The translations under genes and the position numbers were made by a program. This document shows, piece by piece, positions 11,501 through 61,891 of a stretch of DNA of 64,000 nucleotides (position 1 is the first letter of the stretch; each line of letters opens with the position of its first letter). The notes beneath the pieces were generated by a model that was given only the letters and a program-made list of their open reading frames with translations, was not told the origin of the DNA and ran no database searches. Origin of the DNA: a virus; IMG/VR virus record IMGVR_UViG_3300042393_000799; one strand, written 5' to 3'.

Positions 11501-11734
11501 TCCTTCATTGATCTCTGCGTTTGCAAGAGATAATGATTTCATTGCTGATAATTTATCAGTAAAAAATACTAAAGCCTCATTTAATGACAAAGGTTCTTTG
11601 ATATTTTTTGTAAGCGTTTCAGCTTTTATAGAGCTTTTAGTCTCTGACTTTAATAAAGCTAGTTTAACTGCTTCAGCAGTATAGCTTACTTCAGTCGTAA
11701 CTTCTTTATTATTGAAATTAATAAATGATGACAT
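8585..11734 (-). CDS. large (1049 aa) Lys/Glu-rich hypothetical protein, possibly virion-associated
   Basis: 3.15-kb uninterrupted ORF on dominant strand; no recognisable catalytic motif. Confidence 0.5.
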   Translation of the reverse strand: MSSFINFNNKEVTTEVSYTAEAVKLALLKSETKSSIKAETLTKNIKEPLSLNEALVFFTDKLSAMKSLSLANAEINEGKIKQFETDYKDMETSIKRGIGWIDPEYVGDTWENSSDSIDFELVKTELYKRLIAAGLLAFSNPEDGETKGVPVRSLKDLSIKESLEADKVNETLFFAFFNNKKIEVEGKDLWDAKQKAIIELKVPKSKIGYLAVVSAESQKNQDFKFESFVNESEVETIELDMAWDASSTEDDKAAKAAFKKYKIKVKGANGQPGTYEVTGKKKDILAYLKSDFYEMDQETIEEYYPELLESAKKPAGLTLDDTKKVAELYASALSKADGVKATVNKKSLEEDSFDLDVDGEEYAGGSYNIYHNGEVVNHAVPGSPVYGYFDDKLDTIVKNIKNPKLHESAMSNIDIMAQEAKDFKSFVKEFKKEHHDLSKSGEPGQFEAWLQTIYDTAKENMDESVVNEGQFSWMAQDTGNQIGSEKQNTITITMFDDKGNKWEEKKYDGYGEFGGKDYYELLAQMNGIENPNRQDGIDIAFDKKKVKGKVLFPALVEDPKRFNFKKHDFTQEAESDPNQSWYQEEEYDDDYEEYDESVVTEAMFGAKDFNKTLITYALDPKADEIYIIKVDTVINSGFPDPTKVSDKRFHGMFGMMLEDNWMKQYDKLPEVGDILPAPKKDKAFESKVNEAARVPSNVLDFAKRKGSYATSLVKKAATWAEKAGKYISGGTAIGKDYMTIILDMKHQGSEIYINLDDETIELFGEEVTDAKSFQKVLDANMSESVVIEGISVTDERVYGKKGIIIMIDDNGKQVSAIFKDKKNADKYNRNKAEDIKALLDLAKDTKYPNAIDESVVNEGRSINKIQKEWSETTTKMQQKAGDWKVAEGDRKSELLDEMKALTAKKRQLEAELDAAVAGKDKDLELVVSEGNAFGAARAKAIADGEKEFEFEGETYKVEDVGPDDKENAEEFVEESKLTLDALVEMFEVKVNEDLRSDVKKFIKDNASELNTLADKDEWDLMYTKLYSEFNVEADSTKGKDLLKTFQFVF

Positions 11735-11766: not shown

Positions 11767-12198
11767 TTATTTTTTACCAGCACCGGAACCTTTACCACTT
11801 CCGCTTCCAGAACCTGAACCACTTCCGCTTCCAGAACCTGAACCTTTACCACTTGAACGGCCAGAACCTGTACCATAAGCATATCCTGTTCCACCTATAT
11901 TTGATCCACTTCCAGTGCCCGATCCTGATCCAGATCCTGAACCACTAGTAGCATTTTTACCTGTTTTTGGTTTTTTAGGTGTAAGTTTTTTAGCTTTTGC
12001 TTCTTTAGCAATTGGTGCTACTTCTTTTACTGGTTTAGCAGCTTTAATTTTAGTAGGCTTTTTTACTGTAGGTTCTACAATAGGATCAAGTACTGAACCT
12101 CTTTTAGAATCTTCTTTCTCTTTTTTTGCAACTGCTTTAAAAATAGTTATAATAACTACTAAAGATACTAGCACTACTGCGATGATTGTTGTACTCAT
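11767..12198 (-). CDS. membrane-anchored low-complexity protein (N-terminal TM, AKP/K-rich linker, Gly-Ser repeats)
   Basis: 143-aa ORF; MSTTIIAVVLVSLVVIITIF TM; (SGSG)n tail encoded by tandem DNA repeats. Confidence 0.4.
   Translation of the reverse strand: MSTTIIAVVLVSLVVIITIFKAVAKKEKEDSKRGSVLDPIVEPTVKKPTKIKAAKPVKEVAPIAKEAKAKKLTPKKPKTGKNATSGSGSGSGSGTGSGSNIGGTGYAYGTGSGRSSGKGSGSGSGSGSGSGSGSGKGSGAGKK
11790..11850. repeat. tandem direct repeat (~27 nt x2 plus degenerate copies) encoding Gly-Ser repeats
   Basis: ccacttccgcttccagaacctgaa occurs twice in tandem. Confidence 0.6.
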
Positions 12199-12263
12199 AA
12201 TTTTGTTTTTTATTATTTTTGATTATATATTTATATTATTTATCTTCGTTTTGTTTCATAAAA

Positions 12264-12295
12264 GAAAAAAGCAGCTAAAAAGCTGCTCTTTGTTC
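12264..12295 (-). terminator. rho-independent terminator
   Basis: hairpin gcagct/agctgc (12271-12286) flanked by A-run and T-run. Confidence 0.5.
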
Positions 12296-12298
12296 TGT

Positions 12299-12502
12299 TT
12301 AAGCTGGACCACCGACTCCGAAATGGACCCAATTTGCGTAATCATCTGCTATGTCATAAAGATCATCTAAACTAATTTGGAAAATGTGATCATTTTTAAC
12401 ACTTGTAACTTCTACGGTTTTTGAATCATGCTCAGAAGCGGGAACAACTTCTGGGATAAATTCAGCCATTGTAAAACTAGATATTTTTAAAGGGTAAGGC
12501 AT
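12299..12502 (-). CDS. hypothetical small protein
   Basis: 67-aa ORF. Confidence 0.35.
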   Translation of the reverse strand: MPYPLKISSFTMAEFIPEVVPASEHDSKTVEVTSVKNDHIFQISLDDLYDIADDYANWVHFGVGGPA

Positions 12503-12533
12503 ATACTCTCTTATTATATATCTAACACGAAAT

Positions 12534-13286
12534 TTAGATGTTTTTTAGATTTTCAACCATCCAATCCAATTCTACTTGACTAGCTGCGTCTGAGATGGCA
12601 TTATCAGGATCTGGATGTGTTTCAATAAATACTCCATCATATTCAAAAATACGCGCAGCTAAAGAATATTGTTTTGCAAGTTTTCTGCTTCCACCAGTAA
12701 TACCATCACCTGACATTTGAGTTGAGTGTGTACAATCAAAGATAACTTTATCTGCAAATTGTTTCATAACATCAACACCTCTAAAATCTACAATTAATCT
12801 ATCGAAGCCAAATTGAGATCCACGTTCTGTAATCCATACTTGACATGTTGGATTTACTTCTTTGATCTTGGTAACAGCATGTTTCATTGCATCTGCAGAT
12901 AACCACTGACCTTTCTTAACGTTAATAATATCAAAGTGTTTTGCACATTCTATAAGAAGATCTGTTTGTCTACACAAGAATGCTGGAATTTGAATCACAT
13001 CTACTACATCTGATAATGGTAATGCTTGATCTGCAGTATGAATATCTGTAACAATTTTAAGACCTGGAAATTTATCTTTAACATTTCGCATGATCTGAAT
13101 ACCTTCGTCCAAACCTGGACCTCGATTAGAGTGAATTGAAGTTCTATTGGCTTTATCAAAGCTACCTTTAAGATACCAATCTTTTCCTTGCATTAAAGGA
13201 TATAGTGCATTTGCTACTTCTATGAAGTTGTCCTCGCTTTCAATGCTACAAGGACCTAGAATATATGTGTAATTTTCCATTTTCAT
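12534..13286 (-). CDS. kdsA: 3-deoxy-D-manno-octulosonate 8-phosphate (KDO8P) synthase
   Basis: conserved blocks GPCSIES, KGSFDKANRTSIHSNRGPGLDEG, ITDIH, VVDVIQIPAFLCRQTDL, NVKKGQ, ITERGSQFGFDRLIVD, FDCTHS match KdsA/DAHP-synthase family throughout. Confidence 0.88.
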   Translation of the reverse strand: MKMENYTYILGPCSIESEDNFIEVANALYPLMQGKDWYLKGSFDKANRTSIHSNRGPGLDEGIQIMRNVKDKFPGLKIVTDIHTADQALPLSDVVDVIQIPAFLCRQTDLLIECAKHFDIINVKKGQWLSADAMKHAVTKIKEVNPTCQVWITERGSQFGFDRLIVDFRGVDVMKQFADKVIFDCTHSTQMSGDGITGGSRKLAKQYSLAARIFEYDGVFIETHPDPDNAISDAASQVELDWMVENLKNI

Positions 13287-13317
13287 TTATGAGTTATATG
13301 AAAATCTTGGAAATAGT

Positions 13318-13485
13318 TTATTTTTTACGTAACATCATTTCAACAATCATGCCATGAGATTGGTAAACGGCTAAATGTTGACCATTTAGCCTTTCGCCTT
13401 TCTTAATAGATTCCACCATTGATTTAAAAAAATGCATTGGAACCTCACCTTTGTCTATGTAGTGTTTCCACTCTTGAGGATTCAT
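13318..13485 (-). CDS. small ORF (55 aa) translationally coupled to upstream gene via TAATG overlap
   Basis: ATG (rc of 13483-13485) overlaps stop of gene 13485-15305; MNPQEWKHYIDKGEVPMHFFKSMVESIKKGERLNGQHLAVYQSHGMIVEMMLRKK; not in supplied ORF track. Confidence 0.3.
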   Translation of the reverse strand: MNPQEWKHYIDKGEVPMHFFKSMVESIKKGERLNGQHLAVYQSHGMIVEMMLRKK

Positions 13486-15305
13486 TATTCTTCACCTTCT
13501 TGATTTTGAAATCTGGTAGGTACTGGATTTGAAGGTCTTCCAGTTGCACCGAATCCAATATTGAATTCGAATTTCAATAAACTTAATGTATCTAATCCAT
13601 CTGTTTTATTAACTTTAGCTTTACCTTCTTTTTTATCATACTTCCAAACTTCGTTTGTAAACATTTGAGAATCAGCAGTAGAATTATACGTATTTGCATA
13701 TATGTTACCTAAATCGTAATATGCTTCGTATTGTGCTCTCAATTTATCTTCATCGATATCTTGATTTTTCTTTTTCACGTAAGCTATTGCAGATGCAATT
13801 GATTTTTCTTTACGTGCTTTGTATTTTGGATCTTCTAGATCAAAATCATATTTCTTAGACATTGCTTTAATGTCTTCATGTGCTTTCGCCGTATCTCCAT
13901 CAAATATAGATGAATACATCTCTGTTTTGTTAGACATTTTAGTTAAATCACCTTTTATTTCTTCAGGACTAATCTTCTTACCGTCTTTACTTGTGTATTC
14001 TTTGTATTCAGTTAATTCTGTTTTATCTCCAGAAGCTGATGCTCCACCAGCATCTTTTTTAATAGATCTAGTTTCAACACTAGTCATAATTAATTGTAAT
14101 TTTCTTTGAATTTCTTCTGGTGAATCTTTTTCAAAATCAACTTTTTCTGGTGAAATAGAAACAATATCACCTAACGGAAAGTTAGAAGCGGCTGGCATAT
14201 AAACTGAATTACCTTTATTAAGTTCTCTCATATATGAAACCATTTCAACTACATCAGCTGCTCCAGTTGACATATACGGATCCTTCATCATTCTTCCAGT
14301 AATTTCCATTAATTTGTCATCATATTCTTGCTGATCTTTAATATCTTTAAGATTTTTAAAATCATCAATTATGGCTTGTTGTTCTTTGGTAGGTTCTTCA
14401 TCTGCAAATTGTTTAGCAAAACCATCTGCTAAAATATCTGCTGTACCATCTTTTAGTTTTTTTCTATTTTCTGGTGTGGTAGGAGGTGTATCAGGAAATG
14501 CAGATAATGTTTCAATATTATCAGTGTCTTTAAATGCTTTTGCAGTTAGGTCAATAATTTTATTATATTTCTCTAATACTTTTTTTGCACGTTTTGCTTC
14601 TTTTTCATTACCATAGATTTCAAGTAATCTTTCGTCGCTGGGAACATCATGTCTTGTATAGTCAGCACCGTCAATAGAAACACCATTGTCTAATTGTTTA
14701 ACTTCCATTTTGGCTTTTTTATCACCAAAGATTTTAGCTCCGGTCATTGCTTTTTTAGCAATACGTTTACTACCATCTTTTTCAATATTATCAATCCCGT
14801 AATCATTAGCAACATCAATAAGACCCTTTGGCGTAGTTTTATCACCTAATGATTTTCTATAAAGACCAGTTGAAGCAGTGTCTACATATAATTTAGTACC
14901 TCCTGCATTTTTTTTAATCCAACCAGATTCAACATATTTACCTAACAATTCTTTCTTTTCTTCAGCTGATACATTTGGATCTTGGATCTTTCTAATACCG
15001 CTTAATAATTCTTCAGCATTTGCTTTTTGTTCTGGATCTGTTATATCTTTTAATGCTTTTTCAATATTATCGGTAATTTTATTTAAACCAGATAATTTTT
15101 TATCATCTTCTGTTTCGACATCACCTCTTTTAGATGTAACACCATCTATTGTAACTTTTGTATTATCTCCGATTTTATGTTCATCTTCATAATCAGCCAT
15201 CTCTTCTTTATCTGTAAAGTCAAGCTCATTGATAGCATTTTTTGCATTCATTTTTGCCATAGCAATAGCAAAATCATTTCTGATATCGTTAAATTGTTTT
15301 TTCAT
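13485..15305 (-). CDS. large (606 aa) Lys/Asp-rich hypothetical protein
   Basis: long ORF on dominant strand. Confidence 0.5.
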   Translation of the reverse strand: MKKQFNDIRNDFAIAMAKMNAKNAINELDFTDKEEMADYEDEHKIGDNTKVTIDGVTSKRGDVETEDDKKLSGLNKITDNIEKALKDITDPEQKANAEELLSGIRKIQDPNVSAEEKKELLGKYVESGWIKKNAGGTKLYVDTASTGLYRKSLGDKTTPKGLIDVANDYGIDNIEKDGSKRIAKKAMTGAKIFGDKKAKMEVKQLDNGVSIDGADYTRHDVPSDERLLEIYGNEKEAKRAKKVLEKYNKIIDLTAKAFKDTDNIETLSAFPDTPPTTPENRKKLKDGTADILADGFAKQFADEEPTKEQQAIIDDFKNLKDIKDQQEYDDKLMEITGRMMKDPYMSTGAADVVEMVSYMRELNKGNSVYMPAASNFPLGDIVSISPEKVDFEKDSPEEIQRKLQLIMTSVETRSIKKDAGGASASGDKTELTEYKEYTSKDGKKISPEEIKGDLTKMSNKTEMYSSIFDGDTAKAHEDIKAMSKKYDFDLEDPKYKARKEKSIASAIAYVKKKNQDIDEDKLRAQYEAYYDLGNIYANTYNSTADSQMFTNEVWKYDKKEGKAKVNKTDGLDTLSLLKFEFNIGFGATGRPSNPVPTRFQNQEGEE

Positions 15306-15311
15306 ATTAAA

Positions 15312-15911
15312 TTATTTATATGCTCTGATTGTGGAAATTTGAATTCCTTCGTGTTCTTGTTCTAATGATTTTACTAATACTAAATTAGCTTCATCATCAT
15401 CGTAAAATTGTAGGTCGCTATAACCCATATTGATCAATTCTCTAAACGCTTGTTTTTTACGATCTGATATACTACCTTTAAATTTATGTACTGAATCATT
15501 TACTGCAAAAATAAGATCTTTGTCGATTCTAAATCCAACATGTTCTCTTAACCATCTATAGATCATTTCTCTATCATCTCTTGCTGTAACAATTCCAACT
15601 GCGATACGTGATTTATAAGCTTCTTTGAATATGTCTAAGTAATGTTCAATCATTTGACCAGCTTTCATAATCTCTAATGATTTAAATTCATCAAAGTTTA
15701 ATTCATGATCTGCATGTTTTTCATAACTATTAAATTCCTCTGGTGTTAATGAATAACATTCTCCGGTTTTCTTATTGCAAACCTTAATCTTAGCTGAAGA
15801 AATAACTAATGTGTCGTCAAGATCAAACACAAGAATTTTTGAACCATGATATGGTTTTCCAGCTCTGTTTACCTCATTCAGGTATTCTGTGTAATTCTTA
15901 AGGTGTTTCAT
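15312..15911 (-). CDS. HAD-superfamily hydrolase with family N-terminal motif (MKHLKNYTEYLNE)
   Basis: DxDxT motif FDLDDTL near N-terminus; 199 aa. Confidence 0.6.
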   Translation of the reverse strand: MKHLKNYTEYLNEVNRAGKPYHGSKILVFDLDDTLVISSAKIKVCNKKTGECYSLTPEEFNSYEKHADHELNFDEFKSLEIMKAGQMIEHYLDIFKEAYKSRIAVGIVTARDDREMIYRWLREHVGFRIDKDLIFAVNDSVHKFKGSISDRKKQAFRELINMGYSDLQFYDDDEANLVLVKSLEQEHEGIQISTIRAYK

Positions 15912-15941
15912 CTTTAATTATACTAAAAAATCTAATAATGT

Positions 15942-16205
15942 TTATTTATTAGATTCTTGTTTTATTTTTATAGCAGCAATTTTTATATCAATTTTTGCTA
16001 TTTCTGCTTGCATAGATAATTTTTGAGCATTAAGTGATAATATTTCAGATTTTAATGGATCCTCTTCATTTCTCATTGCTTTTGCAGTTTCAACCGCTTT
16101 AGATTTAATGTCGTTTTTCTTTGAATCTAATTCTCTAACTTTAAGATTTAGGTCAGCTACTTTTTGAGCATCCTCAAATAATTGGAAAGTTTTCAGGTGT
16201 TTCAT
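15942..16205 (-). CDS. small coiled-coil protein, family-like N-terminus MKHLKTFQLFED
   Basis: 87-aa ORF. Confidence 0.4.
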   Translation of the reverse strand: MKHLKTFQLFEDAQKVADLNLKVRELDSKKNDIKSKAVETAKAMRNEEDPLKSEILSLNAQKLSMQAEIAKIDIKIAAIKIKQESNK

Positions 16206-16497
16206 CTTTTGGTATTTCTTTTTCTATTTCTAGAGTCCATAGCCTATTATTAGGTACTACGAATTTTCTTTCATGTCCAAAAACATAAAAAGTTGTTTTA
16301 TATATATTTTGTCTAACTATTCTAGCTTTCTTAGCGCCTTTAATATAAACAATATCGTCTACATTAAAATCATTACCCCATAAAAACTGCATACCAATAA
16401 CAAGATTAGCAATCATGTCTTTGAATGTAAATGAAATTATAGCTACTGCTGTCACCCAACCCCATTCTGATATGTATTGTCCTATTAATTCTTTCAT
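16174..16497 (-). CDS. hypothetical membrane-associated protein
   Basis: 107-aa ORF with hydrophobic N-terminal segment. Confidence 0.4.
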   Translation of the reverse strand: MKELIGQYISEWGWVTAVAIISFTFKDMIANLVIGMQFLWGNDFNVDDIVYIKGAKKARIVRQNIYKTTFYVFGHERKFVVPNNRLWTLEIEKEIPKDETPENFPII

Positions 16498-16982
16498 ATT
16501 AGTCCCATTGCACTTAGATTTTGTAAAACCACTTGTTGACTTAACATTACAACTTGTGAAGCTTCGATTTTGTCCATAAATTTGGCATTATCAATTTCTT
16601 CACGCTGTAATTGTCCTTTAGGTACCACTAGATCTTTAAGTCCTATTTTAGACAGGTTATCTATTTCAACTATAAAATAATAAATAACTTTATTATACTT
16701 ATACTTTCTAGAAGTTAAAACAAATGTATGTTCATTTTTGCTTATTAAAGATTTAGGAACTTTGATACCGAACTCTTCATAAGTTTCTCTGATAGCAGCA
16801 TCTAAATGTGATTCACCTTCTTCGATGCCACCTTTAGATATACCATAACCTGTTCCTTCTTTTCTACCTCTAGATTGACCTAACAAAATTTTACCATCAA
16901 ACACAATCGCAAGACCAGCTGAATATCTAGTGTCTAGATATTTCTCGTTGATAAATTGATCATATTTTTTTAGGTGTTTCAT
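16494..16982 (-). CDS. Nudix hydrolase with family N-terminal motif (MKHLKKYDQFINE)
   Basis: Nudix box GGIEEGESHLDAAIRETYEEFG (Gx5Ex7REUxEExGU). Confidence 0.75.
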   Translation of the reverse strand: MKHLKKYDQFINEKYLDTRYSAGLAIVFDGKILLGQSRGRKEGTGYGISKGGIEEGESHLDAAIRETYEEFGIKVPKSLISKNEHTFVLTSRKYKYNKVIYYFIVEIDNLSKIGLKDLVVPKGQLQREEIDNAKFMDKIEASQVVMLSQQVVLQNLSAMGLI

Positions 16983-17272
16983 TATGCTGTAGTTTCGTCA
17001 TCTAATCTTTTAATCTCTTCTTGTATTTCAAATAATCTCCATTCGAAATCAAATAGCTCTTGACGACTTAATTTATTTTGTTTAAATGACTTTTTAGCTC
17101 TGCTGTATTCTTCAGTCAATCGCTTAAGTACTTTCTTTAGTTCACTCTTTGTTTGATTGGTGCCAATCGAATGTTGAGTATTACTCTTGTCTATTTTTAC
17201 CTCATTCGTTTTTTCAACCACGATCATCTCGAAGTCTGAAAATAGCATTAGAAACTTTTCTGTAGTGCTCAT
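16982..17272 (-). CDS. hypothetical coiled-coil protein
   Basis: 96-aa ORF, ATGA overlap with upstream gene. Confidence 0.4.
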   Translation of the reverse strand: MSTTEKFLMLFSDFEMIVVEKTNEVKIDKSNTQHSIGTNQTKSELKKVLKRLTEEYSRAKKSFKQNKLSRQELFDFEWRLFEIQEEIKRLDDETTA

Positions 17273-17307
17273 GATGTTTTTATGTTTTTAATTTAAACAC
17301 TTATAAC

Positions 17308-17700
17308 TTATATATCGAGTTTATATTTTTCTTTAACTCTTTCACTAATTGGTATGGGATCACCATTCTCATCTATTCGTACAAACTTGATATTTGTACA
17401 TAATATAATTGATTGACTGCCTGAATATACGTTATGTGCTCTGGCTTCTAAATATAGCGTAATACTCGTTCTACCGATATTTAGCATTTTACCATAAATT
17501 TTTAATAGTTGACCTTCTTTTGCAGGTTTTTTAAACTCACACTTATCAATCATTACTGTAACCATTCTTGGTGTATCACACACTTGCATTGCATATCCTG
17601 CAGCTGCAGCATCTAACCATGCTAATAGTTTTCCACCAAAAAGATTTCCATGAAAACCCAAATCTGACTTTTTGATAGGGTGTGTTGTTATATGTTCCAT
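17308..17700 (-). CDS. hotdog-fold acyl-CoA thioesterase (YciA/4HBT-like)
   Basis: GNLFGGKLLAWLD motif characteristic of YciA-type thioesterases. Confidence 0.6.
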   Translation of the reverse strand: MEHITTHPIKKSDLGFHGNLFGGKLLAWLDAAAAGYAMQVCDTPRMVTVMIDKCEFKKPAKEGQLLKIYGKMLNIGRTSITLYLEARAHNVYSGSQSIILCTNIKFVRIDENGDPIPISERVKEKYKLDI

Positions 17701-17709
17701 TTATTAGTT

Positions 17710-18603
17710 TTACTTAATTGATTTTATCCAAGATAATAAGTTTGTTTCAGGTTTCCAACCCAATTGTTTAGTTATTTTTGCAATATCTGCAACAGAACGC
17801 ATAGGTTCCTCTCTTTTTTCTAAATGTTTGATTTCACCACCAAATGCTTCAGCTACTTCAATAACTTGAGTTTCTGTGCCAGATCCAACATTATAAATTG
17901 GCATTGTGGTCTTAAATTCGGCCTGACTACTCATTATAATAGCATTGACTACATCTTTAACATAAATCCAATCTCTGGTTTGTGCACCATCACCAGTTAC
18001 AGTAATAGGTTGATAAGATTCATATTGTTGTAAGAAAATAGGCACTGCACTTCGGTATCCACCAGTAGCTCTTTGACCTTCACCAAAGACATTAAAAAAT
18101 CTTAGAGCTGTACACTTAAATTGAGGTTTATTATAACTCATCATCATGTGTTCCATTTCCAATTTAAATTCGGCATAAGGACTCATTGGACTTGGTGTAT
18201 CACTCTCTTTTAGAGGCACTTGTTCTGAATCACCATAAACTGCAGCAGTGGATGCAGCTACCATTGAAGTAGCTCCCATTTCATAAGCCCAACTCATGAC
18301 TCTTCTACTTGCAACACATATACCTGTCCAATATTTCATTGGCTCTTCTAAACTTTCAGGTACACTAATAGGTGCAGCTAAATGAAATAGAGTATCAAAT
18401 TTATAAGTTGGCAATTTACCATTAGTAATATCTATGGCTTCAATAATTAGATTTGGATGTGGCTCTAAATTGTCAATTGATCCAGTACTGAAATTATCAA
18501 GTACAGTTACAAACCATCCATTATTTAATAGTTCTTTAACTAGATGTGAACCGATAAAACCAGCTCCACCTGTAACTACAGCTTTCATACTTCTTTTTGA
18601 CAT
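17710..18603 (-). CDS. NAD-dependent sugar epimerase/dehydratase (extended SDR)
   Basis: N-terminal Rossmann motif VVTGGAGFIGSHLV; SDR-epimerase length and architecture. Confidence 0.8.
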   Translation of the reverse strand: MSKRSMKAVVTGGAGFIGSHLVKELLNNGWFVTVLDNFSTGSIDNLEPHPNLIIEAIDITNGKLPTYKFDTLFHLAAPISVPESLEEPMKYWTGICVASRRVMSWAYEMGATSMVAASTAAVYGDSEQVPLKESDTPSPMSPYAEFKLEMEHMMMSYNKPQFKCTALRFFNVFGEGQRATGGYRSAVPIFLQQYESYQPITVTGDGAQTRDWIYVKDVVNAIIMSSQAEFKTTMPIYNVGSGTETQVIEVAEAFGGEIKHLEKREEPMRSVADIAKITKQLGWKPETNLLSWIKSIK

Positions 18604-19292
18604 ATAATTTTAATATTATTTCCTGCATGATAATGATCTCCTAAAAGAGACCATTTATTTGCATCTTGTTTAACCCACCAATATATATGAGCACCTTTAC
18701 CAGCACATGGCATTGTTACATCAAATCTTTCGAATTTTTCAGTCAACTGACCATTTAGTATCTCGTTTATATTAACCCATGTACCATCTAAATAATTATC
18801 ATCGACTATTACTATAGCACCTGCACCTAATTTGGCTTCAATGGCTTCGAATTCTCGCCAACCATGTAATGCACTAGGTAAAGAATCACGTAAATCCAAA
18901 TCCCATGAATCTAAATGAACAATATCTACATGCTCATCAAACCTCTTTAAAAATTGGACGGAGTCTTCAGTAAAAAATTCTACAAATTCCAAACCTAATT
19001 CTGCAAATGCTGTTTTAGATTTAGCTATTATAATAGGATCTATATCTACGACCCACATTTTACCACCAGTTACTAAAGCTATATTAGCAAAAAAAGTACC
19101 CATCATACCATCTTGCCATGATTGACTAGCTCCAGTTTCTATAATATTAATAGGACCAATAGCTTTTACTTTACCAATTATAGCGCTAACTATAGTATCA
19201 ATTTGTCTTGCTCTTTCAGGTCGACCTCCATTGGCTTCTAGACTAGTTTTATATTGATCTGCTAATCGATTTATTATCCAAAAATTATCCAT
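18585..19292 (-). CDS. putative SAM-dependent methyltransferase (Methyltransf_24/TylF-like), tentative
   Basis: IIETGASQS Gly-rich motif followed by acidic VVDID and HLDSWD blocks. Confidence 0.35.
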   Translation of the reverse strand: MDNFWIINRLADQYKTSLEANGGRPERARQIDTIVSAIIGKVKAIGPINIIETGASQSWQDGMMGTFFANIALVTGGKMWVVDIDPIIIAKSKTAFAELGLEFVEFFTEDSVQFLKRFDEHVDIVHLDSWDLDLRDSLPSALHGWREFEAIEAKLGAGAIVIVDDNYLDGTWVNINEILNGQLTEKFERFDVTMPCAGKGAHIYWWVKQDANKWSLLGDHYHAGNNIKIICQKEV

Positions 19293-22200
19293 ACAGTTCT
19301 TTATTAATTACATTTATAACTCTGTCCGATCCAATTGTTTTAGTACATTCAAATTGTCGGTGTGTACCTTTCCATAAAGGACACCAATTCCAATCACCTT
19401 TGTCAAATGTATCCCAACCCCAACAACCATGACATACTTGATGATTGTTAATATAAATGGCATCTGCAAATTCTACATAAGGATCTGTAAAGCCACTAAT
19501 AATAATTACTTTTGCTCCAAGTGCCCAAGCGAACCAACTAAGGCCAGAGCTGATTCCAATAAACAGTTCAGCTTCATTGATAGCTCCTGCTACTAATGCA
19601 AGCTCTTCTGGTAATTGTTTAACCCCTTTTAATTGACTACCTTCTTTACTAGCATGGTACACACTAATCTCTTTACTATTACACCAGTCAATGGTTTCTT
19701 GCCATCCAGTAGGATTATTCCAATACTTGGCTTGTGCGGTACTTTGGGTAGCAATGACAATGGAGCGTTTTTTTGCAGTAGACTTGATCAAGAATTCGCG
19801 CGCTAGTTGAGGTCTTTGTTCTACGTACTCAGTACCTAAGCGATCTGAGGCGATTTTCCCCAGGGGTATTTGTCTCCAGTCATATTTATGTTCAGCACGT
19901 TTCCATGGTTCTTCCATGGTGTAAAAGACTCCGAGTGTAATTAGCGCACCCTTGTTAGGCACTGACCAGTCAATGATGTCTATGCCCTTTGAGCTATACC
20001 ATGCTTTGTCAAACAGCCAGGGTTTGTGTGTCTTCACATATAATTTGCTAAGCTTATGTGTGTCTATCACTGTGTGCAGCTGTCCCATGAAGCTCAGTGT
20101 GTCTCCAAGTGATGAGCTCGCCATTTCCACTGTCAGTTCCTGGCCTTCCAGGCTCAGACGTTCTGAATGAACTAGTTGGTCATTACTGTAAACCTTAACA
20201 GTCCACTGAGTCCACCAATTTCTTGCGGGCTTGTACCAACTTCCAGCTTGCAGGTCTGTAGCGTTCCAGACTAGATCTTGGTTATCATAAAACTCGGCCC
20301 GTAATTGACCACTTCCAGTTGACTTGATCGTTAATTTCGGACCATCTTGATACTCTAATGTCCATTCAGGTTGTTTGTGTGTCGGTGGCTTTTGAGGGCC
20401 TCGTGGGGTAGTTAAACATTGTTGGTACCATTGGATATGTTGTACAGTGAAACGTTTTAGATCGTCGTCTGGGATATTTTTTCCTTGTGCCTCGGATGAT
20501 TTGAGTGTTTTGATTAATTGGTCAACATTTCCATGGAGATCATCTGTGAATGGGACAATGTAAGGTGTAAACATGTCCTTATATTGCTCTAAGTTTCTAG
20601 AGAATGTGATTAGACCATGACCGATTGCTTCACGTAGTGCGAGTGGACTACACTCCCATGTTGAGTTAAACATAAATGCGTCACATGCACTCATAAAGAC
20701 ATCAACGTCGTTTCTCTCACCCCATATAGTAACATTACTTGGCAGCTTCTTCATAATTGGTCCCCAATATTGTTCGAAGTTTTCTGCTTGATTACCCACG
20801 AAATGAAAGTGATACTTTCCAGGAAATTGAGCTTCTACAATTCTAGCAATATCAACACCTTCTGCTTGATTCTTTCCTTGTGTCCAAAGACCTACATTTA
20901 ATATGTGAGTCTTATCGATAGCTAAACCTAATTTAGCTCTTGATTTTGCTTTATCAAATGCTGAAGGTTTTTGATTTAATATAGGATATTCTACAACTGG
21001 TTTTAAACCATCTCTATTTCCAAATGTTTCTAAATGATATGGAGTACACATCATGTACATATCTGGATCATTGATCTTATTGTTTGGATCAAACCAAATA
21101 TTGTGAGATGTTTCTACAATCTTCCATTGTTTATTGTAAAGCCATTCCATTGCACTTTGATCAATTTTATTAAATCCATCAAATGATTCTGGACATTCAT
21201 CAATATGAATAATATCTGGGTTTATTTCTAAAATCTTTGCTTTTAATCTTTCACCTCGCTCAGTGATGTCTATTGAATTTAAAAATCCTAATGAATGAAA
21301 TCTAGCACCTAATTTTTCTATAAGTTGATCTCGTTGTACATTGTAAATATCACTATATTGAGTATACTCTACTAAGTGGATTTCAAAGTCTTTTACATCT
21401 AACATAGCTTCAACTCTCTTTAAGACAAATTGAGGCATGCCTCCTGTACTTAAATGTGGTGCTAGGAATAGTAATTTAGTTTTGTTTGTCATTTCTTTGG
21501 TGTTAGGTTTCATATAGACATGGTCTACTAATAAGTCATTATACAAATCTATAACTGCATCGAATGTTTTATCCACTGTAGGATGACACTCGAATGTTGG
21601 TTTATATTCTAAGCAATGCAACTGTGGAGGAATAGCTTGAATAGTTCCATGTTCAATAATATTGTATTTCATATTACTAGAACAGAAAATATCGCAACTT
21701 CCACCAATATATTTGTATTTATAATCTTGTGAACCCTTTCTATAAGGTGCTCTTAATTTTGGATCTATTGAACTACCCAATTGAATAATATTTACATCAG
21801 TAGTTCCTGCAATGTGCAATAAACCAGAATCCATAGTAACTATAGCTCTAGCTTTATGATTCATCATCCATCTTAATTCAGCTGGATCATTTGTTGGATC
21901 ATTAAGTAAGTTAACTCCGAGTTTTATATTCAAATTCATTACTGGTTTGTCTACTGAGAATGTACCAACTTCATGAGAATCTCGACCAACTGCAACTACT
22001 GGAATACCTCTATCGTTTAATCTATCAACAAGTTCTTGCCACTTATCTTGATCCCATGTTCTACTTGCCCAAGTATAAGTTGGGTGTATTATAACATAGT
22101 TTTCAAATCCAAGATTTCTTTCACGTTCAATATACAAATCCATTTCCATTTCATCTTGAGTTAAACTAAACCCTAATGAAACTGCATGAAATTGTCTAAT

Positions 22201-22488
22201 ATCCATATTAGACGATCTAAATTCTACTTGTTCACCTCTTAAATCATATGCTTTACCAACAATTGGCATAAACGTACGATAAACCTTTATATTAGGGTCA
22301 TATCTAAGAGGGTCATCCAACTTTAGTGCTTTCGACACTAGTGGATGACCCTCGAATAAGAAAGGTTTACTAGAAAATACTATAAGCTGTGACTCACACG
22401 CTTTAGCTAACTTCCTAAGTGTAGGAATTGCTGCTATCGTGTCACCTAATGCAGGCGTATCTATACATATCGCAACTTGTTTTGACAT
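19285..22488 (-). CDS. multidomain glycosyltransferase (GT9 heptosyltransferase-like N- and C-terminal domains flanking a GT4 domain)
   Basis: N-term ICIDTPALGDTIAAIPTLRKL (GT9); middle FLAPHLSTGGMPQFV and EAIGHGLI (GT4/GT1); C-term GT9-like GISSGLSWFAWALGAKVIII. Confidence 0.75.
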   Translation of the reverse strand: MSKQVAICIDTPALGDTIAAIPTLRKLAKACESQLIVFSSKPFLFEGHPLVSKALKLDDPLRYDPNIKVYRTFMPIVGKAYDLRGEQVEFRSSNMDIRQFHAVSLGFSLTQDEMEMDLYIERERNLGFENYVIIHPTYTWASRTWDQDKWQELVDRLNDRGIPVVAVGRDSHEVGTFSVDKPVMNLNIKLGVNLLNDPTNDPAELRWMMNHKARAIVTMDSGLLHIAGTTDVNIIQLGSSIDPKLRAPYRKGSQDYKYKYIGGSCDIFCSSNMKYNIIEHGTIQAIPPQLHCLEYKPTFECHPTVDKTFDAVIDLYNDLLVDHVYMKPNTKEMTNKTKLLFLAPHLSTGGMPQFVLKRVEAMLDVKDFEIHLVEYTQYSDIYNVQRDQLIEKLGARFHSLGFLNSIDITERGERLKAKILEINPDIIHIDECPESFDGFNKIDQSAMEWLYNKQWKIVETSHNIWFDPNNKINDPDMYMMCTPYHLETFGNRDGLKPVVEYPILNQKPSAFDKAKSRAKLGLAIDKTHILNVGLWTQGKNQAEGVDIARIVEAQFPGKYHFHFVGNQAENFEQYWGPIMKKLPSNVTIWGERNDVDVFMSACDAFMFNSTWECSPLALREAIGHGLITFSRNLEQYKDMFTPYIVPFTDDLHGNVDQLIKTLKSSEAQGKNIPDDDLKRFTVQHIQWYQQCLTTPRGPQKPPTHKQPEWTLEYQDGPKLTIKSTGSGQLRAEFYDNQDLVWNATDLQAGSWYKPARNWWTQWTVKVYSNDQLVHSERLSLEGQELTVEMASSSLGDTLSFMGQLHTVIDTHKLSKLYVKTHKPWLFDKAWYSSKGIDIIDWSVPNKGALITLGVFYTMEEPWKRAEHKYDWRQIPLGKIASDRLGTEYVEQRPQLAREFLIKSTAKKRSIVIATQSTAQAKYWNNPTGWQETIDWCNSKEISVYHASKEGSQLKGVKQLPEELALVAGAINEAELFIGISSGLSWFAWALGAKVIIISGFTDPYVEFADAIYINNHQVCHGCWGWDTFDKGDWNWCPLWKGTHRQFECTKTIGSDRVINVINKELYG

Positions 22489-22491
22489 GTA

Positions 22492-22881
22492 TTAGTATGA
22501 TTCATAGGATTTCTCTTCTACGAATAAAGATCCTGTTAACAAATTGATTTTTTTCTTGACATCAGATCTATCATCATTTGTGTAATACACAGATCTTGCC
22601 AATTCAATGAAGTCTTCGCCAAATGATTCTTTGCGTTCACATTCACGAATCATATCTTCAATATTCCAAAGGGTTTTATTTACATTAAATAAATCTTCGT
22701 GTAATACTGTTAATTCACGATAGTCATCAACTTCATTATAGATGTGATCTACGACAGATGAAAGTGAATCATACTCTTTTTGAATATTTGCTAATTTTTC
22801 AGGATCAGAAATCTCTTTAAGTTTGATTTCTAAAATAGTTAACTTGTCAATAATTTCTCCGTTTGATACCTCGATTTTCAT
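22492..22881 (-). CDS. hypothetical protein
   Basis: 129-aa ORF. Confidence 0.4.
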   Translation of the reverse strand: MKIEVSNGEIIDKLTILEIKLKEISDPEKLANIQKEYDSLSSVVDHIYNEVDDYRELTVLHEDLFNVNKTLWNIEDMIRECERKESFGEDFIELARSVYYTNDDRSDVKKKINLLTGSLFVEEKSYESY

Positions 22882-23087
22882 TATTTCGCTTTTTTATCAC
22901 TGAATGGTTTTGTTAATAATTCTGCTGCGGCTGCAACAAATACTGAATCTCGTACACTTAATACTCCTGCGCCTTGAGCTGCATTAGCTGCCTGAATTAA
23001 AATATTAAGAGCTTGTACATTGGTCATAGTTTTCACTTCTTCGAAAGGTGAAACTTGTGGTTTTTCTTGTGTTGTTTGTTCTGACAT
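22881..23087 (-). CDS. hypothetical small protein
   Basis: 68-aa ORF, ATGA-type overlap. Confidence 0.3.
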   Translation of the reverse strand: MSEQTTQEKPQVSPFEEVKTMTNVQALNILIQAANAAQGAGVLSVRDSVFVAAAAELLTKPFSDKKAK

Positions 23088-23145: not shown

Positions 23146-24066
23146 TTATAAACTCAATAGCATTGTAATTAATTCTTGTTGTGGAAATACATCTGATTTA
23201 TCCTTTCTAACTTGACCATGCGTTAATACGCCTTTGATCTTTCCTAGATTTGCATCTTCGCTATATTCAAAAGCATTAGAACTAGTTAATTTTTGAACTA
23301 CTCCTGATTTTAAATCAATATCATGTTTATCTGATAATAATAACAATAATGCTTTAGTAGCTTTGATTTGTTCTGGTGAATATTTATGGTAATATTTAAA
23401 ACCTCTGTATTCAGAATCTAATCTTGCGACTTGTGATTCATGAACTTGAGCACCGTACCATGTGTAATATTTACCATCCTTTTCTGTTAAACATCCTGCA
23501 GAACAGATTTCTATACTAATAGAACCCTTATGCATTTTTGAAGATTTGACAGCACCTAAATGATAACCCCAATATTCATCTTTGATGGCTTGTAAAATTT
23601 TACCATCCCATTCAGATTCTTTTTCTGTCAGTGTATTAATATTTGCAGTTGAAGGAATTCCACCAATAACATAATGTGTTCCTATTCTACCACGTTGGTC
23701 CTTAGCCCATTGGTCAATTGTATCTTTTGGATTATGTCTACCAGCAGTGTGATGTAAAAATATCCATTCTTTATGTGTTACTTCTTTGATATATTCGTTA
23801 TCTGGTAAAAGATGTTGTTGAATCCATGTTGCACCAGTAGTAGCATCAGTATCGGCATCTAATTCTAGTGGATTATAATTTAAAGCTTTCCATGTTAATG
23901 GACCCACTGTACCATCTGATTTTAAACCATTTGCTTTTTGGAATTTAATAACGGCAAGTCTAGTTTCATTTCCAAATTCACCGTCTATTTTTAGATCCAA
24001 AAGTTCTTGAAGTATTCCTACCAAGTTTCCAGTTTGACCTAATTTTAAAACGTATTTACTTTGCAT
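23146..24066 (-). CDS. endolysin: peptidoglycan-binding domain + N-acetylmuramoyl-L-alanine amidase (amidase_2/PGRP)
   Basis: PG_binding_1-like LAVIKFQKANGLKSDGTVGPLTWKAL; amidase_2 block IFLHHTAGRHNPKDTIDQWAKD...THYVIGG. Confidence 0.8.
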   Translation of the reverse strand: MQSKYVLKLGQTGNLVGILQELLDLKIDGEFGNETRLAVIKFQKANGLKSDGTVGPLTWKALNYNPLELDADTDATTGATWIQQHLLPDNEYIKEVTHKEWIFLHHTAGRHNPKDTIDQWAKDQRGRIGTHYVIGGIPSTANINTLTEKESEWDGKILQAIKDEYWGYHLGAVKSSKMHKGSISIEICSAGCLTEKDGKYYTWYGAQVHESQVARLDSEYRGFKYYHKYSPEQIKATKALLLLLSDKHDIDLKSGVVQKLTSSNAFEYSEDANLGKIKGVLTHGQVRKDKSDVFPQQELITMLLSL

Positions 24067-32798: not shown

Positions 32799-32799
32799 G

Positions 32800-32873
32800 T
32801 GGAGGTGACAGGAATCGAACCTGCGACCCTCTGCGTGCAAGGCAGATGCTCTAGCCAACTGAGCTACACCCCC
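32800..32873 (-). tRNA. tRNA-Ala-TGC: tRNA-Ala (anticodon TGC)
   Basis: rc reads GGGGGTGTAGCTCAGTTGGCTAGAGC...CTTGCAC...GGTTCGATTCC...CACCTCCA; cloverleaf with 7-bp acceptor, T-loop TTCGATT. Confidence 0.85.
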
Positions 32874-38857: not shown

Positions 38858-39334
38858 TTATTCTACGTCTTTTAATTCTGTTCTTAATCTACCAATTGCA
38901 CCTTCTAAAGTATTATAGACTGGAATGTTGTGTCGACTGCAAACTATATCTACATTTCCTTTGCGCCAAAATTCATCTGGACAACAAACAATCATTTTTT
39001 CAGATGCAGCATGCATACCAAGTTCTAATAAACTGATTGGACTCTTGGTTTCTGGAGAAAAGTACATGAAAATAATATCGCATTCATCTAACTTATTCAT
39101 TTCCCAATTTACTTGTCCACTGAATTGTGGATTAGATTCTTTTTGTTCCCATGAACTATCCCAATCATCTCTACGAGGATTGAAAAAAACCAAGTTTTGA
39201 CGATCTTTAAATAATTCAGGAATTACTGCTTGCCAATCTTCTGCTTTTCCCATTTCAATAGAACCTGCTAAAAATATTTTAACATGATGATCGTTATAAT
39301 ATGCATTTTTTGGTTCTGGTTTAATTACTTCCAT
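38858..39334 (-). CDS. nucleoside 2-deoxyribosyltransferase-like protein
   Basis: IFLAGSI...FNP...ECDIIFMYF...SLLELGMHAASEKMIVCCPD pattern of the family. Confidence 0.5.
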   Translation of the reverse strand: MEVIKPEPKNAYYNDHHVKIFLAGSIEMGKAEDWQAVIPELFKDRQNLVFFNPRRDDWDSSWEQKESNPQFSGQVNWEMNKLDECDIIFMYFSPETKSPISLLELGMHAASEKMIVCCPDEFWRKGNVDIVCSRHNIPVYNTLEGAIGRLRTELKDVE

Positions 39335-39593
39335 TTTCTTTGTGTATTGAATTTTTACAATTTCCTTTATGGGATCCCCATTGAGTATTACCCATTCCGA
39401 CTACAATATATTCACAACCTTCAAGAGTGTAGACTCTATAATTTTGATCAGAGTATTGTGAATTACTATCAAGTTCCATTCGATGCGGATTCGGTTGAGT
39501 TGAAACTTGTACATTACCTTCGCAGCTTGTAACCACAAAGGCTACAAGCGCTGCAAAGATTAATATTAATAATGTTACATTTTTTCTGTTCAT
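39321..39593 (-). CDS. small lipoprotein
   Basis: signal peptide + lipobox VTSC. Confidence 0.45.
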   Translation of the reverse strand: MNRKNVTLLILIFAALVAFVVTSCEGNVQVSTQPNPHRMELDSNSQYSDQNYRVYTLEGCEYIVVGMGNTQWGSHKGNCKNSIHKENGSN

Positions 39594-41173: not shown

Positions 41174-41186
41174 ATATTAATTGTTT

Positions 41187-41267
41187 TTAATTATAGAGTA
41201 AATATACATAAAAAACCTGACATAAAAAAATATCAGGTGATTTATTTTAAAAAAGTTATTAACAATC
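41187..41267 (-). promoter_or_regulatory. repeated intergenic cassette
   Basis: ttaattatagagtaaatatacat...acctgacataaaaaaatatcaggt...ttattttaaaaaagttattaacaatct. Confidence 0.65.
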
Positions 41268-42552: not shown

Positions 42553-42629
42553 AATATATGTTATTGTGCAACCGTCGTTAGTTGGATGCTGGTTATAAGT
42601 ATTATATTAAATACTTTTATTTTGTTTCA

Positions 42630-43205: not shown

Positions 43206-43357
43206 CTTCGTCTTTATTAAAATCCGTTATTTTTACTAAAATATAAAATGGAACTATAATTGCATAAAATTCCCATTGGTACCAGCTGATATTTGCAAAT
43301 GCTGATAGAGCAAATCCTAAATATGATGGTGCTAATAATTCTACTAATCTTTTCATA

Positions 43358-44328: not shown

Positions 44329-44331
44329 ATT

Positions 44332-45029: not shown

Positions 45030-45032
45030 TTC

Positions 45033-46093: not shown

Positions 46094-46228
46094 TACTCTG
46101 CTTCCTCGTTTTCAGATTCTTCTACTTCAACTTCTCTTAATTCATATCTTGAACCTAAGATTGGATCGTGTACTAGTACAATAACTTCTTGTACTTGCTT
46201 TTCTACTGCTTTTGCTTTTTTAGCCATC

Positions 46229-61889: not shown

Positions 61890-61891
61890 TG

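Follow-up and report, generated by a model that had tools for sequence, protein, structure and literature searches.

A phage-borne kdsA gene and its neighboring glycosyltransferase cassette

The sequence analyzed here, referred to as the window, is a 64,000-nt stretch of the virus record IMGVR_UViG_3300042393_000799 (IMG/VR), and the region under study (positions 12,534 to 22,488) contains kdsA, the gene for the synthase of 3-deoxy-D-manno-octulosonate (Kdo) 8-phosphate, together with a cassette of sugar-related genes centered on a 1067-amino acid (aa) glycosyltransferase. A previous, sequence-only reading had taken these genes as one coordinated set with which the phage reprograms host lipopolysaccharide (LPS) or capsule, and had mentioned glycosylation of the phage's own virion proteins as an alternative. 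It had placed the cassette on the same strand as kdsA, which is correct, and downstream of it, which is not; since all these genes lie on the minus strand, the glycosyltransferase, the methyltransferase and the short-chain dehydrogenase/reductase (SDR) lie, in terms of transcription, upstream of kdsA. Related loci fetched for comparison are designated by L and a number.

kdsA is predicted to encode a functional Kdo-8-phosphate synthase

The kdsA gene (12534-13286, minus strand, 250 aa) is predicted to encode a metal-dependent Kdo-8-phosphate synthase (KDO8PS). The product passed the NCBIfam model NF003543 for 3-deoxy-8-phosphooctulonate synthase (287.5 bits, cutoff 242), stayed below the cutoff of the alternative model TIGR01362 (271.8 bits, cutoff 314), matched the Pfam family DAHP_synth_1 (E 4e-52) and could be aligned end to end with the Aquifex aeolicus KDO8PS (PDB 1fwn; E 1e-64, 49% identity). 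The match to KdsA along the whole length, which had been claimed from the sequence, was thus upheld. The metal ligands of the Aquifex enzyme (Cys11, His185, Glu222 and Asp233) were all kept, as C13, H187, E222 and D233, and all Lys and Arg residues binding phosphate, phosphoenolpyruvate (PEP) and arabinose-5-phosphate (A5P) were also retained. KDO8PS is distinguished from DAH7PS by the motif KANRS, which reads KANRT in the window enzyme. Across 11 aligned KdsA sequences (seven phage homologues, three flavobacterial enzymes and that of Aquifex), the C, H, E and D ligands, the residues K-A-N-R and the phosphate-binding Lys and Arg were invariant. At the sequence level, the enzyme is therefore not catalytically dead, an outcome that the sequence-only reading had named as refuting it, given that its metal and substrate residues are intact.

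Comparison with four phage homologues gave a dN/dS of 0.09 to 0.12 (Nei-Gojobori). The gene is under strong purifying selection, which argues that KdsA is likely to be functional, and a catalytically competent phage enzyme is supported by these sequence features. KdsA of the window belongs to a distinct phage clade whose members share 79 to 88% identity and occur in two unrelated genome contexts. Recent capture of kdsA from a host was considered and rejected, as identity to the few flavobacterial enzymes compared was 39 to 45%, versus 49% to Aquifex. One further homologue, 38% identical to KdsA of the window, was encoded on a 233,595-bp contig of a Flavobacteriales metagenome-assembled genome (L030, PAHN01000007.1); this contig may be a phage binned into the bacterial genome, its size being like that of jumbo-phage contigs, or simply a host contig.

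The 1067-aa glycosyltransferase combines three glycosyltransferase modules

The large glycosyltransferase (19285-22488, minus strand) proved real, and it is composed of three glycosyltransferase modules, which are GT9-like, GT4 and TibC/Aah-type, respectively. By hydropathy, no membrane segment was found in it.

The C-terminal module 3 (aa 698 to 1067; 19288-20397, minus strand) resembles protein O-heptosyltransferases of the TibC/Aah type (BAHT), with a predicted β-barrel and iron finger. Over aa 730 to 1063 it passed, narrowly, the model TIGR04414 for autotransporter strand-loop-strand O-heptosyltransferases (208.8 bits, cutoff 200), and its sequence matched TibC (PDB 4rap) with an E value of 2e-31 at approximately 26% identity. 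In the AlphaFold model (mean pLDDT 78 for the whole protein and approximately 90 for the C-terminal module), the strands at residues 708 to 777, corresponding to the β-barrel, are followed by a GT-B fold, and the best PDB match of the modeled module was again TibC (Foldseek E 2e-22, target TM-score 0.77). For a residue-level comparison, we used the features given in the TibC structure paper, in which Asp110 is the catalytic base, Thr226 and Lys230 bind the donor at its β-phosphate, Trp305 binds the sugar and Arg286 contacts the adenine (PMC4358343). The first four correspond to D796, T917, K921 and W985 of module 3, and the Cys4 iron finger (Cys339, Cys342, Cys358 and Cys370 in TibC) to C1019, C1022, C1036 and C1048, all of them invariant in 28 homologues. 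At the position of TibC Pro300, module 3 has Ser, the same as in Aah.

Modules 1 and 3, at the two ends of the protein, were homologous to each other (BLASTP E 3e-5). Module 1 (aa 1 to 330; 21499-22488, minus strand) appears from its invariant motifs and from this homology to be a GT9-like GT-B module with a Cys4 cluster of its own. It matched Glyco_transf_9 and heptosyltransferase I, both below cutoff, and residues LGD (D16), T137, T139, R143, DSG..H and C265, C269, C292 and C301 were invariant in the 28 homologues. Module 2 (aa ~336 to 695; 20404-21483, minus strand) is a predicted GT4 retaining glycosyltransferase that passed Glycos_transf_1 (32.0 bits, cutoff 26.4) and was modeled with a fold like those of BshA, MshA and WaaG. 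Of its EX7E motif, E612 was invariant in the 28 homologues and E620 was read from the window sequence. The invariance of E612 and of the catalytic motifs of modules 1 and 3 held down to 48% identity.

A Pfam GT9 domain was found in the glycosyltransferase with 62.6 bits, yet the scores for the LPS heptosyltransferases WaaC/WaaF/WaaQ were far below cutoff (TIGR02193, 50.7 versus 185.3; TIGR02195, 25.9 versus 134.6; TIGR02201, 29.0 versus 170.2), and the whole set of such models gave 26 to 51 bits against cutoffs of 135 to 467. The protein thus has the GT9 fold and is not an LPS heptosyltransferase equivalog.

Other genes of the cassette and around kdsA

Upstream of the glycosyltransferase, and with its stop codon 4 nt before the glycosyltransferase start codon, lies a gene for a DUF6165 protein (22492-22881, minus strand, 129 aa; PF19662, E 2e-16). 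DUF6165 was also found at or near the glycosyltransferase in L004 to L012. It was modeled as a five-helix bundle (AlphaFold pLDDT 85), for which Foldseek returned no significant PDB match. An amidase gene (Amidase_2 plus PG_binding_1; 23146-24066, minus strand) lies just upstream of the cassette, and most of the clade to which the window belongs has the amidase in this same place, next to the DUF6165 and glycosyltransferase genes; the window also encodes a glucosaminidase (7000-7587, minus strand), which makes two peptidoglycan hydrolases.

Following the glycosyltransferase is a gene for a probable class I methyltransferase (18585-19292, minus strand, 235 aa). Its own match was borderline (Spermine_synth, 22.8 bits versus a cutoff of 22.9) and a PDB sequence search returned nothing for it, but the same slot is filled in relatives by FkbM, Methyltransf_24 or Methyltransf_25. 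The earlier call of a possible methyltransferase is a weak one. The next gene encodes an extended SDR of 297 aa, probably a UDP-sugar 4-epimerase or UXS-like enzyme (17710-18603, minus strand). This gene, too, had been recognized correctly, with a Pfam Epimerase match of E 3e-49 and intact cofactor (GxxGxxG) and catalytic (YxxxK) motifs. Its best PDB matches were UDP-GlcNAc/UDP-hexose 4-epimerases (6dnt, 6wjb and 4zrm) and UDP-GlcA decarboxylases, and it was below the equivalog cutoffs of both GalE (TIGR01179, 169.5 versus 262.3) and HldD (TIGR02197, 108.9 versus 274.6). Assignment as HldD, the ADP-heptose 6-epimerase, was rejected on this score and on the best structural relatives.

Two genes upstream of kdsA is a gene for a phosphatase of the HAD superfamily (15312-15911, minus strand, 199 aa) with the motif FDLDDT (DxDxT) and a downstream DDD motif. 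It matched phrog_415 (PNK-phosphatase type, E 2e-12), gave no match in PDB or NCBIfam, and was kept in relatives both with and without kdsA. We regard it as a candidate sugar-phosphate phosphatase, possibly an analogue of KdsC or GmhB. After kdsA comes a conserved open reading frame (ORF) of 67 aa (12299-12502, minus strand), also present in L004 and L031, and beyond it a terminator-like hairpin (12291-12266, minus strand; 11 pairs and a T-run), which may mark the end of the transcription unit containing kdsA.

L004, from the 82%-identical lineage, has an extra gene for a cytidylyltransferase-like protein of 132 aa (16776-17174), absent from the window, which could be an HldC-like sugar-1-phosphate nucleotidyltransferase or the NMNAT of an NAD salvage set. 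L004 also has a 305-aa gene of unknown function and an Endonuclease_NS gene, neither of them present in the window; all three extra genes lie between SDR and 4HBT.

kdsA is mobile and can occur apart from the cassette

Comparison of related loci showed that kdsA and the cassette can occur without each other. L012, whose glycosyltransferase is 54% identical, has the same gene order as the window (amidase, DUF6165, glycosyltransferase, methyltransferase, SDR, 4HBT, NUDIX and HAD), and kdsA is absent from this syntenic locus. Conversely, L031 has a kdsA that is 87% identical and retains the HAD/4HBT synteny, and the 5.7 kb that immediately precede its 4HBT gene on the upstream side, where the cassette lies in the window, are free of it. 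In none of 80 IMG/VR loci was kdsA found within 10 kb of the cassette.

Four other IMG/VR contigs (L033, L034, L036 and L037) carry a kdsA that is 79 to 81% identical, in surroundings otherwise unlike those of the window. The order there (L033, 10001-20207) is nrdA, nrdB, kdsA, a PglF/PseB-like 4,6-dehydratase, a PglD-like acetyltransferase, a DegT aminotransferase and a GT2 glycosyltransferase, followed by a HAD phosphatase, a nucleotidyltransferase, an SDR and a C5 cytosine DNA methyltransferase, the last of these 8 kb downstream of kdsA. The L033 kdsA overlaps the start of the dehydratase gene. In cyanophage S-SCSM2R, kdsA is paired with kdsB, with a glycosyltransferase nearby. Together, L012, L031, the 80 loci and the L033-type context make kdsA and the cassette evolutionarily separable, and kdsA is a mobile, phage-adapted accessory clade that has repeatedly landed among sugar-nucleotide genes.

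Partners of KdsA were sought with Pfam in the approximately 70 ORFs of the window, which covers 64 kb of a genome of approximately 240 kb. Neither kdsB, kdsC or kdsD, which the sequence-only reading had proposed to look for elsewhere in the phage genome, nor a Kdo-transferase (GT30, GT99 or GT107) was found among these ORFs. They contained no matches to SIS/CBS isomerase, Hydrolase_3 or CTP_transf_3, so a complete CMP-Kdo pathway is not encoded there, and likewise no lipid-carrier, flippase, polymerase, ligase or ADP-heptose pathway genes.

The cassette is widespread and often adjoins virion and fiber genes

Relatives of the large glycosyltransferase were abundant in metagenomes. The full-length protein had more than 1300 homologous clusters. 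With the BAHT module alone, 1139 clusters (50% identity) were obtained, and in most of them the module formed the C-terminus of a protein of 600 to 2000 aa. At least 545 IMG/VR contigs encoded relatives, and we inspected the neighborhoods of 80 such loci, in a full set of 89. The fused GT4-BAHT pair was present in all 80, and the GT9-like module was fused to it or encoded just upstream in 53. An FkbM methyltransferase directly followed the glycosyltransferase in 29 of these 80 loci, and DUF6165 was nearby in 15.

A T4-type tail sheath gene was located within the fetched flank in 11 of the 89 loci, with neck, terminase or capsid genes also in a few. The cassette of L008 lies between gp21/gp23/gp13 genes and the tail sheath gene. 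The glycosyltransferase of L060 is flanked by genes that Pfam assigned to a lectin-like protein (Laminin_G_3) and to a protein with collagen repeats, and near the cassette of L092 Pfam recognized genes for a protein of the latter kind, for a neck protein, for TerL and for the sheath. No autotransporter substrate gene was found in the window or the related loci; the neighbors were instead of fiber type, namely (GTS)n collagen-like, solenoid and LamG proteins.

Scored as ORFs with at least 10 consecutive G-X-Y triplets within 10 kb of the cassette, collagen-like ORFs were found in 42/89 loci, corresponding to 29/60 clusters at 90% BAHT identity and 8/19 at 70%; control loci, retrieved for unrelated purposes and totaling 235 kb, contained none. 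They were mostly directly downstream of the cassette and convergent with it, and reached 3087 aa; giant examples are L074 12860-22123, L049 13623-22034, L083 12946-19512 and L092 1578-6152. These were not ordinary collagens. Over 4416 triplets, X was Thr in 73% and Ser in 15% (88% together), and Y was Ser in 60% and Asn in 23%, giving arrays of the types (G-T-S)n, (G-T-N)n and (G-S-S)n. This Ser/Thr composition would suit the repeats to dense O-glycosylation. The GTNGTS units of these ORFs also include N-G-T sequons.

Candidate acceptors and further glycosyltransferases in the window

The only plus-strand genes of the window are a fiber-like pair, encoding a 148-aa protein (58743-59189) and an 876-aa β-solenoid protein (59212-61842). 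The latter contains approximately 25 nonapeptides of the form N-x-I-G-x-x-F-x-x, and its N-terminus resembles the annotated tail fiber of Clostridium phage phiCT453A (E 5e-11). In distant loci, GT4-BAHT genes had a homologue of the 148-aa protein (14 loci) or of the 876-aa protein (9 loci) encoded no more than 10 kb away. The pair are candidate virion fibers and candidate glycan acceptors. The 148-aa protein shares its N-terminal domain with LamG-type proteins of other phages, which begin with one or sometimes several copies of it. Convergent with the fiber-like gene is a GT25 glycosyltransferase gene (61970-62662, minus strand; Glyco_transf_25, E 2e-22), and a GT32-like glycosyltransferase with a DXD sugar-binding region is encoded at 52730-53374 (minus strand; Gly_transf_sug, E 6e-12). 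Both had been proposed before, and the Pfam matches bear them out.

A further protein of 143 aa (11767-12198, minus strand) is encoded after kdsA and the 67-aa ORF. It has an N-terminal membrane helix, a Lys-rich linker and a long (Ser-Gly)n tail and is the sole G/S/T-rich ORF in the window. The same architecture was found at the same position in L004 (21938-22453) and L031 (11129-11602), and the ortholog in L012 (20692-20949), which has no kdsA, contains the helix and the Lys-rich part and no SG repeats. The 143-aa protein is, speculatively, another candidate glycan acceptor; the co-occurrence of SG repeats with kdsA is suggestive but anecdotal.

Origin of the window and its probable host

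The window is densely packed with genes arranged on one strand and has a GC content of 31%. It contains seven tRNA genes (Ala, Ile, Ser, His, Leu, Val and Lys; 32799-32873, 61891-61965 and 63062-63781), a phage ATP-dependent DNA ligase gene, and genes for phage-type NAMPT (phrog_448) and phosphoribosyl pyrophosphate (PRPP) synthase (phrog_619), with more than 2000 phage records; Thg1-like, NADAR, NUDIX and PD-(D/E)XK genes are also present. The 64 kb contained no gene for a capsid protein or a terminase. Identical or near-identical segments of the window occurred in several metagenomes, ENA contigs of 225 to 240 kb encoded an 82%-identical glycosyltransferase in the same gene order, and relatives of both kdsA and the glycosyltransferase were carried by IMG/VR viral contigs. 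Distant homologues of the cassette are located inside T4-like morphogenesis modules, with genes for the gp21 protease, gp23, gp13, a neck protein, a T4-type TerL and the tail sheath. This evidence is indirect but consistent, and it fits a large myovirus-like phage of ~240 kb, as yet uncultured, with the window as part of its accessory arm. A megablast search of positions 12000-23000 against deposited phages gave zero matches, so there is no close cultured relative among them, and tblastn of the whole glycosyltransferase against the same phages gave partial matches only. The "moraphage" (PMC12619734) was considered as a possible account of this lineage, and no link between the two was found.

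The host is probably a member of the Bacteroidota, and probably of the marine Flavobacteriia, because relatives encode proteins with CHU_C sorting domains (type IX secretion) and the GC content is low. Deducing the host from KdsA was also attempted and abandoned; a pattern scan of GTDB gave only Flavobacteriaceae, but the scan had been seeded with exact peptides. A sigma-70 promoter scan found sites no more often than in shuffled sequence, and Bacteroidota promoters are outside the coverage of the model used.

A proposed explanation: an active KdsA and a separate protein glycosylation cassette

The reading that we favor, with a probability of about 50%, is a combined one, in which kdsA would be an active, phage-adapted auxiliary metabolic gene (AMG) and the cassette a separate system that O-glycosylates proteins, likeliest the phage's own fiber or virion proteins. 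KdsA would condense A5P and PEP during infection and so enlarge the supply of Kdo-8-phosphate, from which the HAD phosphatase encoded nearby may remove the phosphate. Enzymes encoded outside the window, either host KdsB and WaaA or products of phage genes elsewhere, would have to activate Kdo to CMP-Kdo and transfer it. The cassette (DUF6165, the tri-modular glycosyltransferase, the methyltransferase and the UDP-sugar 4-epimerase) would act as a soluble cytoplasmic machine, with the TibC-like module adding the first sugar to protein and the GT4 and GT9-like modules extending it. The product may be a short, probably methylated oligosaccharide on Ser/Thr, likeliest attached to the phage's own fiber or virion proteins before or during assembly. 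The analysis itself shows which domains are present, that their catalytic residues are conserved, that selection is purifying, how the genes are distributed and what lies around them; which host is infected, which acceptor and donor sugars are used and in what order the modules act, we infer. Virion-fiber O-glycosylation is favored for the cassette because of its neighborhoods in other phages and the identity of the C-terminal module.

Several observations weigh against this reading. To our knowledge, none of the glycosyltransferase families encoded in the window uses CMP-Kdo, and kdsA can therefore not be connected here to the cassette or to a phage glycan. Kdo in bacteria is overwhelmingly a sugar of LPS and capsule, the GT25 family belongs for the most part to LPS synthesis, and, where kdsA alone is concerned, the LPS or capsule of the host is a live option for the destination of Kdo. 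The ORFs scanned include no heptose pathway genes. The BAHT score is barely over its cutoff and identity to TibC is approximately 26%, so the donor (possibly ADP-heptose) and the acceptor class are extrapolated. Compared to TibC, module 3 lacks the β-hairpin thumb (Phe265 and Val266, forming the dodecamer ring); there is a nine-residue gap at this position, and the consensus of the 28 homologues is likewise without the extra residues. Arg286 is also not conserved, being unaligned in HMMER and Val in an ungapped manual register against the consensus, and the donor nucleotide is uncertain as a result of this replacement. Finally, collagen-like and structural genes are absent from the 10 kb around the cassette in the window's own clade (L004 to L006, L009, L007/L010/L011, L012, L040 and L041). 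The neighbors there are an endolysin-type amidase and, in some relatives, genes for a PAP2 lipid phosphatase, a GlmS-like protein and UDP-glucose dehydrogenase, which would fit envelope chemistry as well.

These envelope-type neighbors also count in favor of the original proposal, that KdsA, the SDR, the methyltransferase and all the glycosyltransferases jointly remodel the LPS core or capsule of the host, either for superinfection exclusion or for upkeep of the outer membrane in a long infection. Kdo is the hallmark sugar of the LPS inner core, heptosyltransferase I, the weak best match of module 1, takes Kdo as its acceptor, and GT25 is an LPS-associated family. Moreover, no non-coding terminator-like hairpin separates the cassette from kdsA, and phage LPS genes and kdsA have been read as surface modification in print (PMC5332604, PMC12801897). 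Nevertheless, kdsA and the cassette were not found together outside this sub-lineage, the LPS heptosyltransferase models failed where the protein-heptosyltransferase model passed, none of kdsB, kdsC, kdsD, waaA, a flippase, a polymerase or a ligase was found among the window ORFs, and the cassettes of other lineages are located among genes for capsid, neck, sheath and Ser/Thr-rich fibers. We consider this proposal unlikely, and a single coordinated set of LPS or capsule genes is not supported. Glycosylation of the phage's own virion proteins, mentioned before only as a second option, emerges as the better-supported reading for the cassette and for the cassette only, given its virion and fiber neighbors and the BAHT model passed.

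A more modest role for kdsA would be that of a stand-alone booster of flux through the host's essential Kdo/LPS pathway, for example to offset host shut-off, its adjacency to sugar genes then reflecting an insertion hotspot. The presence in the window of the synthase step only, which is the typical AMG logic of one committed step, and the movement of kdsA between phage lineages as an accessory gene would agree with this. However, both independent contexts place kdsA beside sugar-nucleotide or glycan genes. In L033, it overlaps the PglF-like start and is accompanied by a phosphatase and a nucleotidyltransferase, and S-SCSM2R pairs it with kdsB near a glycosyltransferase. These repeated sugar-gene contexts argue for use in a phage-specified glycan, and simple flux boosting seems to us quite improbable. 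The sugar genes could also serve to hypermodify phage DNA, with Kdo, heptose or other glycans placed on 5-hydroxymethylcytosine (5hmC) to evade restriction. Phage glycosyltransferases do add Kdo and heptose from host pools to 5hmC (bioRxiv 10.1101/2023.12.21.572611), the C5 cytosine DNA methyltransferase of L033 lies 8 kb from its kdsA, and the authors of the TibC structure liken the grip of the iron finger on its substrate to DNA binding by zinc fingers (PMC4358343). On the other hand, no C5-methyltransferase, TET/5mYOX or dCMP hydroxymethylase was found in the ORFs scanned, which cover 64 of ~240 kb, the characterized DNA glycosyltransferases are single-domain GT-A or T4 β-GT-like enzymes and not GT9/BAHT fusions (bioRxiv 10.1101/2023.12.21.572611), and an association with Ser/Thr-rich fiber genes would be unexpected for a DNA system. 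DNA hypermodification is very improbable, and the least probable of the explanations considered.

Taking the favored reading, of an active KdsA beside a separate protein glycosylation cassette, one step further, GT4-BAHT fusions, often accompanied by a GT9-like module, FkbM and DUF6165, might constitute an undescribed O-glycosylation system of large aquatic phages, which would coat (Gly-Thr-Ser)n and other fibers with methylated oligosaccharides. In the lineage of the window, the mobile kdsA might add Kdo to these, resulting in an LPS-like virion coat. We put this forward tentatively and regard it in its full form as possible but rather doubtful.

Relation to known systems

The sequence-only reading had called kdsA unusual cargo for a phage. 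It is indeed rare in phages, but viral kdsA genes have already been published from Synechococcus phage S-SCSM2R, the environmental T4-like phage TARA_ERS478052_N000008, CroV and Fadolivirus (PMC12801897, PMC5332604, PMC9614988). In giant viruses, whose hosts have no LPS, the Kdo pathway genes cluster with glycosyltransferases and sugar methyltransferases (PMC9614988), and the published viral kdsA genes are, like that of the window, located among glycosyltransferase or sugar-modifying genes. KdsA of S-SCSM2R is 43% identical to that of the window. The systems differ in completeness; S-SCSM2R has kdsB and CroV the whole pathway, whereas the 64 kb of the window contain the synthase step and an unassigned HAD phosphatase.

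With TibC and Aah (TIGR04414; PDB 4rap and 4rb4), module 3 shares the β-barrel, the GT-B fold, the Cys4 iron finger and the catalytic residues. Unlike these enzymes, it is fused behind GT4 and GT9-like modules in a phage protein, it has neither the thumb nor Arg286 nor the autotransporter partner of TibC, and its likely partners are (Gly-Thr-Ser)n collagen-like and solenoid fiber proteins. TibC-type protein glycosyltransferases are, as far as we know, so far restricted to enterobacterial adhesin systems. The literature searched, whose coverage was incomplete, nowhere described BAHT-type glycosyltransferases of phages or linked such enzymes to (GTS)n proteins, and novelty is claimed provisionally.

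Glycosylation of collagen-like or fibril proteins is known from giant viruses (Mimivirus) and from the Bacillus exosporium protein BclA, in which the acceptors are Ser/Thr-rich or collagen-like. In mycobacteriophages, virion glycosylation is phage-encoded according to Freeman et al. 2023 as cited in PMC12619734, and, going by that citation, virus-encoded cytoplasmic glycosyltransferases are found there beside structural genes, as in the cassette loci. In contrast to these three systems, the cassette combines GT9/BAHT and GT4 fusions with FkbM methyltransferases in phages of Gram-negative aquatic hosts. The large T4-like cyanophages P-SSM2 and S-SCSM1 carry, like the window, many glycosyltransferases, NDP-sugar epimerases and methyltransferases in accessory regions (PMC12801897), but these clusters have been read as host surface modification and have not been linked to BAHT-type enzymes or Ser/Thr-rich fiber genes. 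The clusters for DNA glycan hypermodification (Pyle et al. 2024) likewise combine phage glycosyltransferases with sugar-activating genes and use Kdo and heptose; they need, however, a 5hmC route as well as DNA glycosyltransferases of the single-domain kind, and the scanned ORFs of the window showed neither.

A phage kdsA is thus not new in itself, and what may matter is the TibC-type core of the cassette beside Gly-Thr-Ser repeat genes and tail or neck genes. If the proposed function is true, large aquatic phages that infect Gram-negative hosts would commonly have glycosylated virions, beyond mycobacteriophages. This would matter for how virions adsorb, how they stick to polysaccharide particles in the sea and how grazers and host defenses recognize them, and it would advise caution against reading every phage "LPS gene" as host-surface remodeling.

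Other genes of the window

A 1049-aa acidic protein devoid of Cys is encoded at 8585-11734 (minus strand) and contains five copies of the motif E-S-V-V-[N/T/I]-E-[G/A], which is retained in a 724-aa ortholog in L012. Pfam and PHROG searches gave no matches for it. The protein looks like a head-internal polyprotein that would be cut by a T4-type prohead protease, which cleaves after hydrophobic-x-Glu and before Ala/Gly.

Genes for a Thg1-like tRNA-His guanylyltransferase and a YqeY-like protein (41259-42552) were found alongside tRNA genes. The co-occurrence of the seven tRNAs, including tRNA-His, with these two proteins suggests that the phage matures its own tRNA-His. The window also contains an NAD/ADP-ribose and repair block (38858-47376 and 16494-16982) that encodes NAMPT, PRPP synthase, NADAR, a nucleoside 2-deoxyribosyltransferase-like protein, HAD_SAK_2 and NUDIX, and this block may provide NAD salvage and counter-defense against NAD-depleting or ADP-ribosylating systems.

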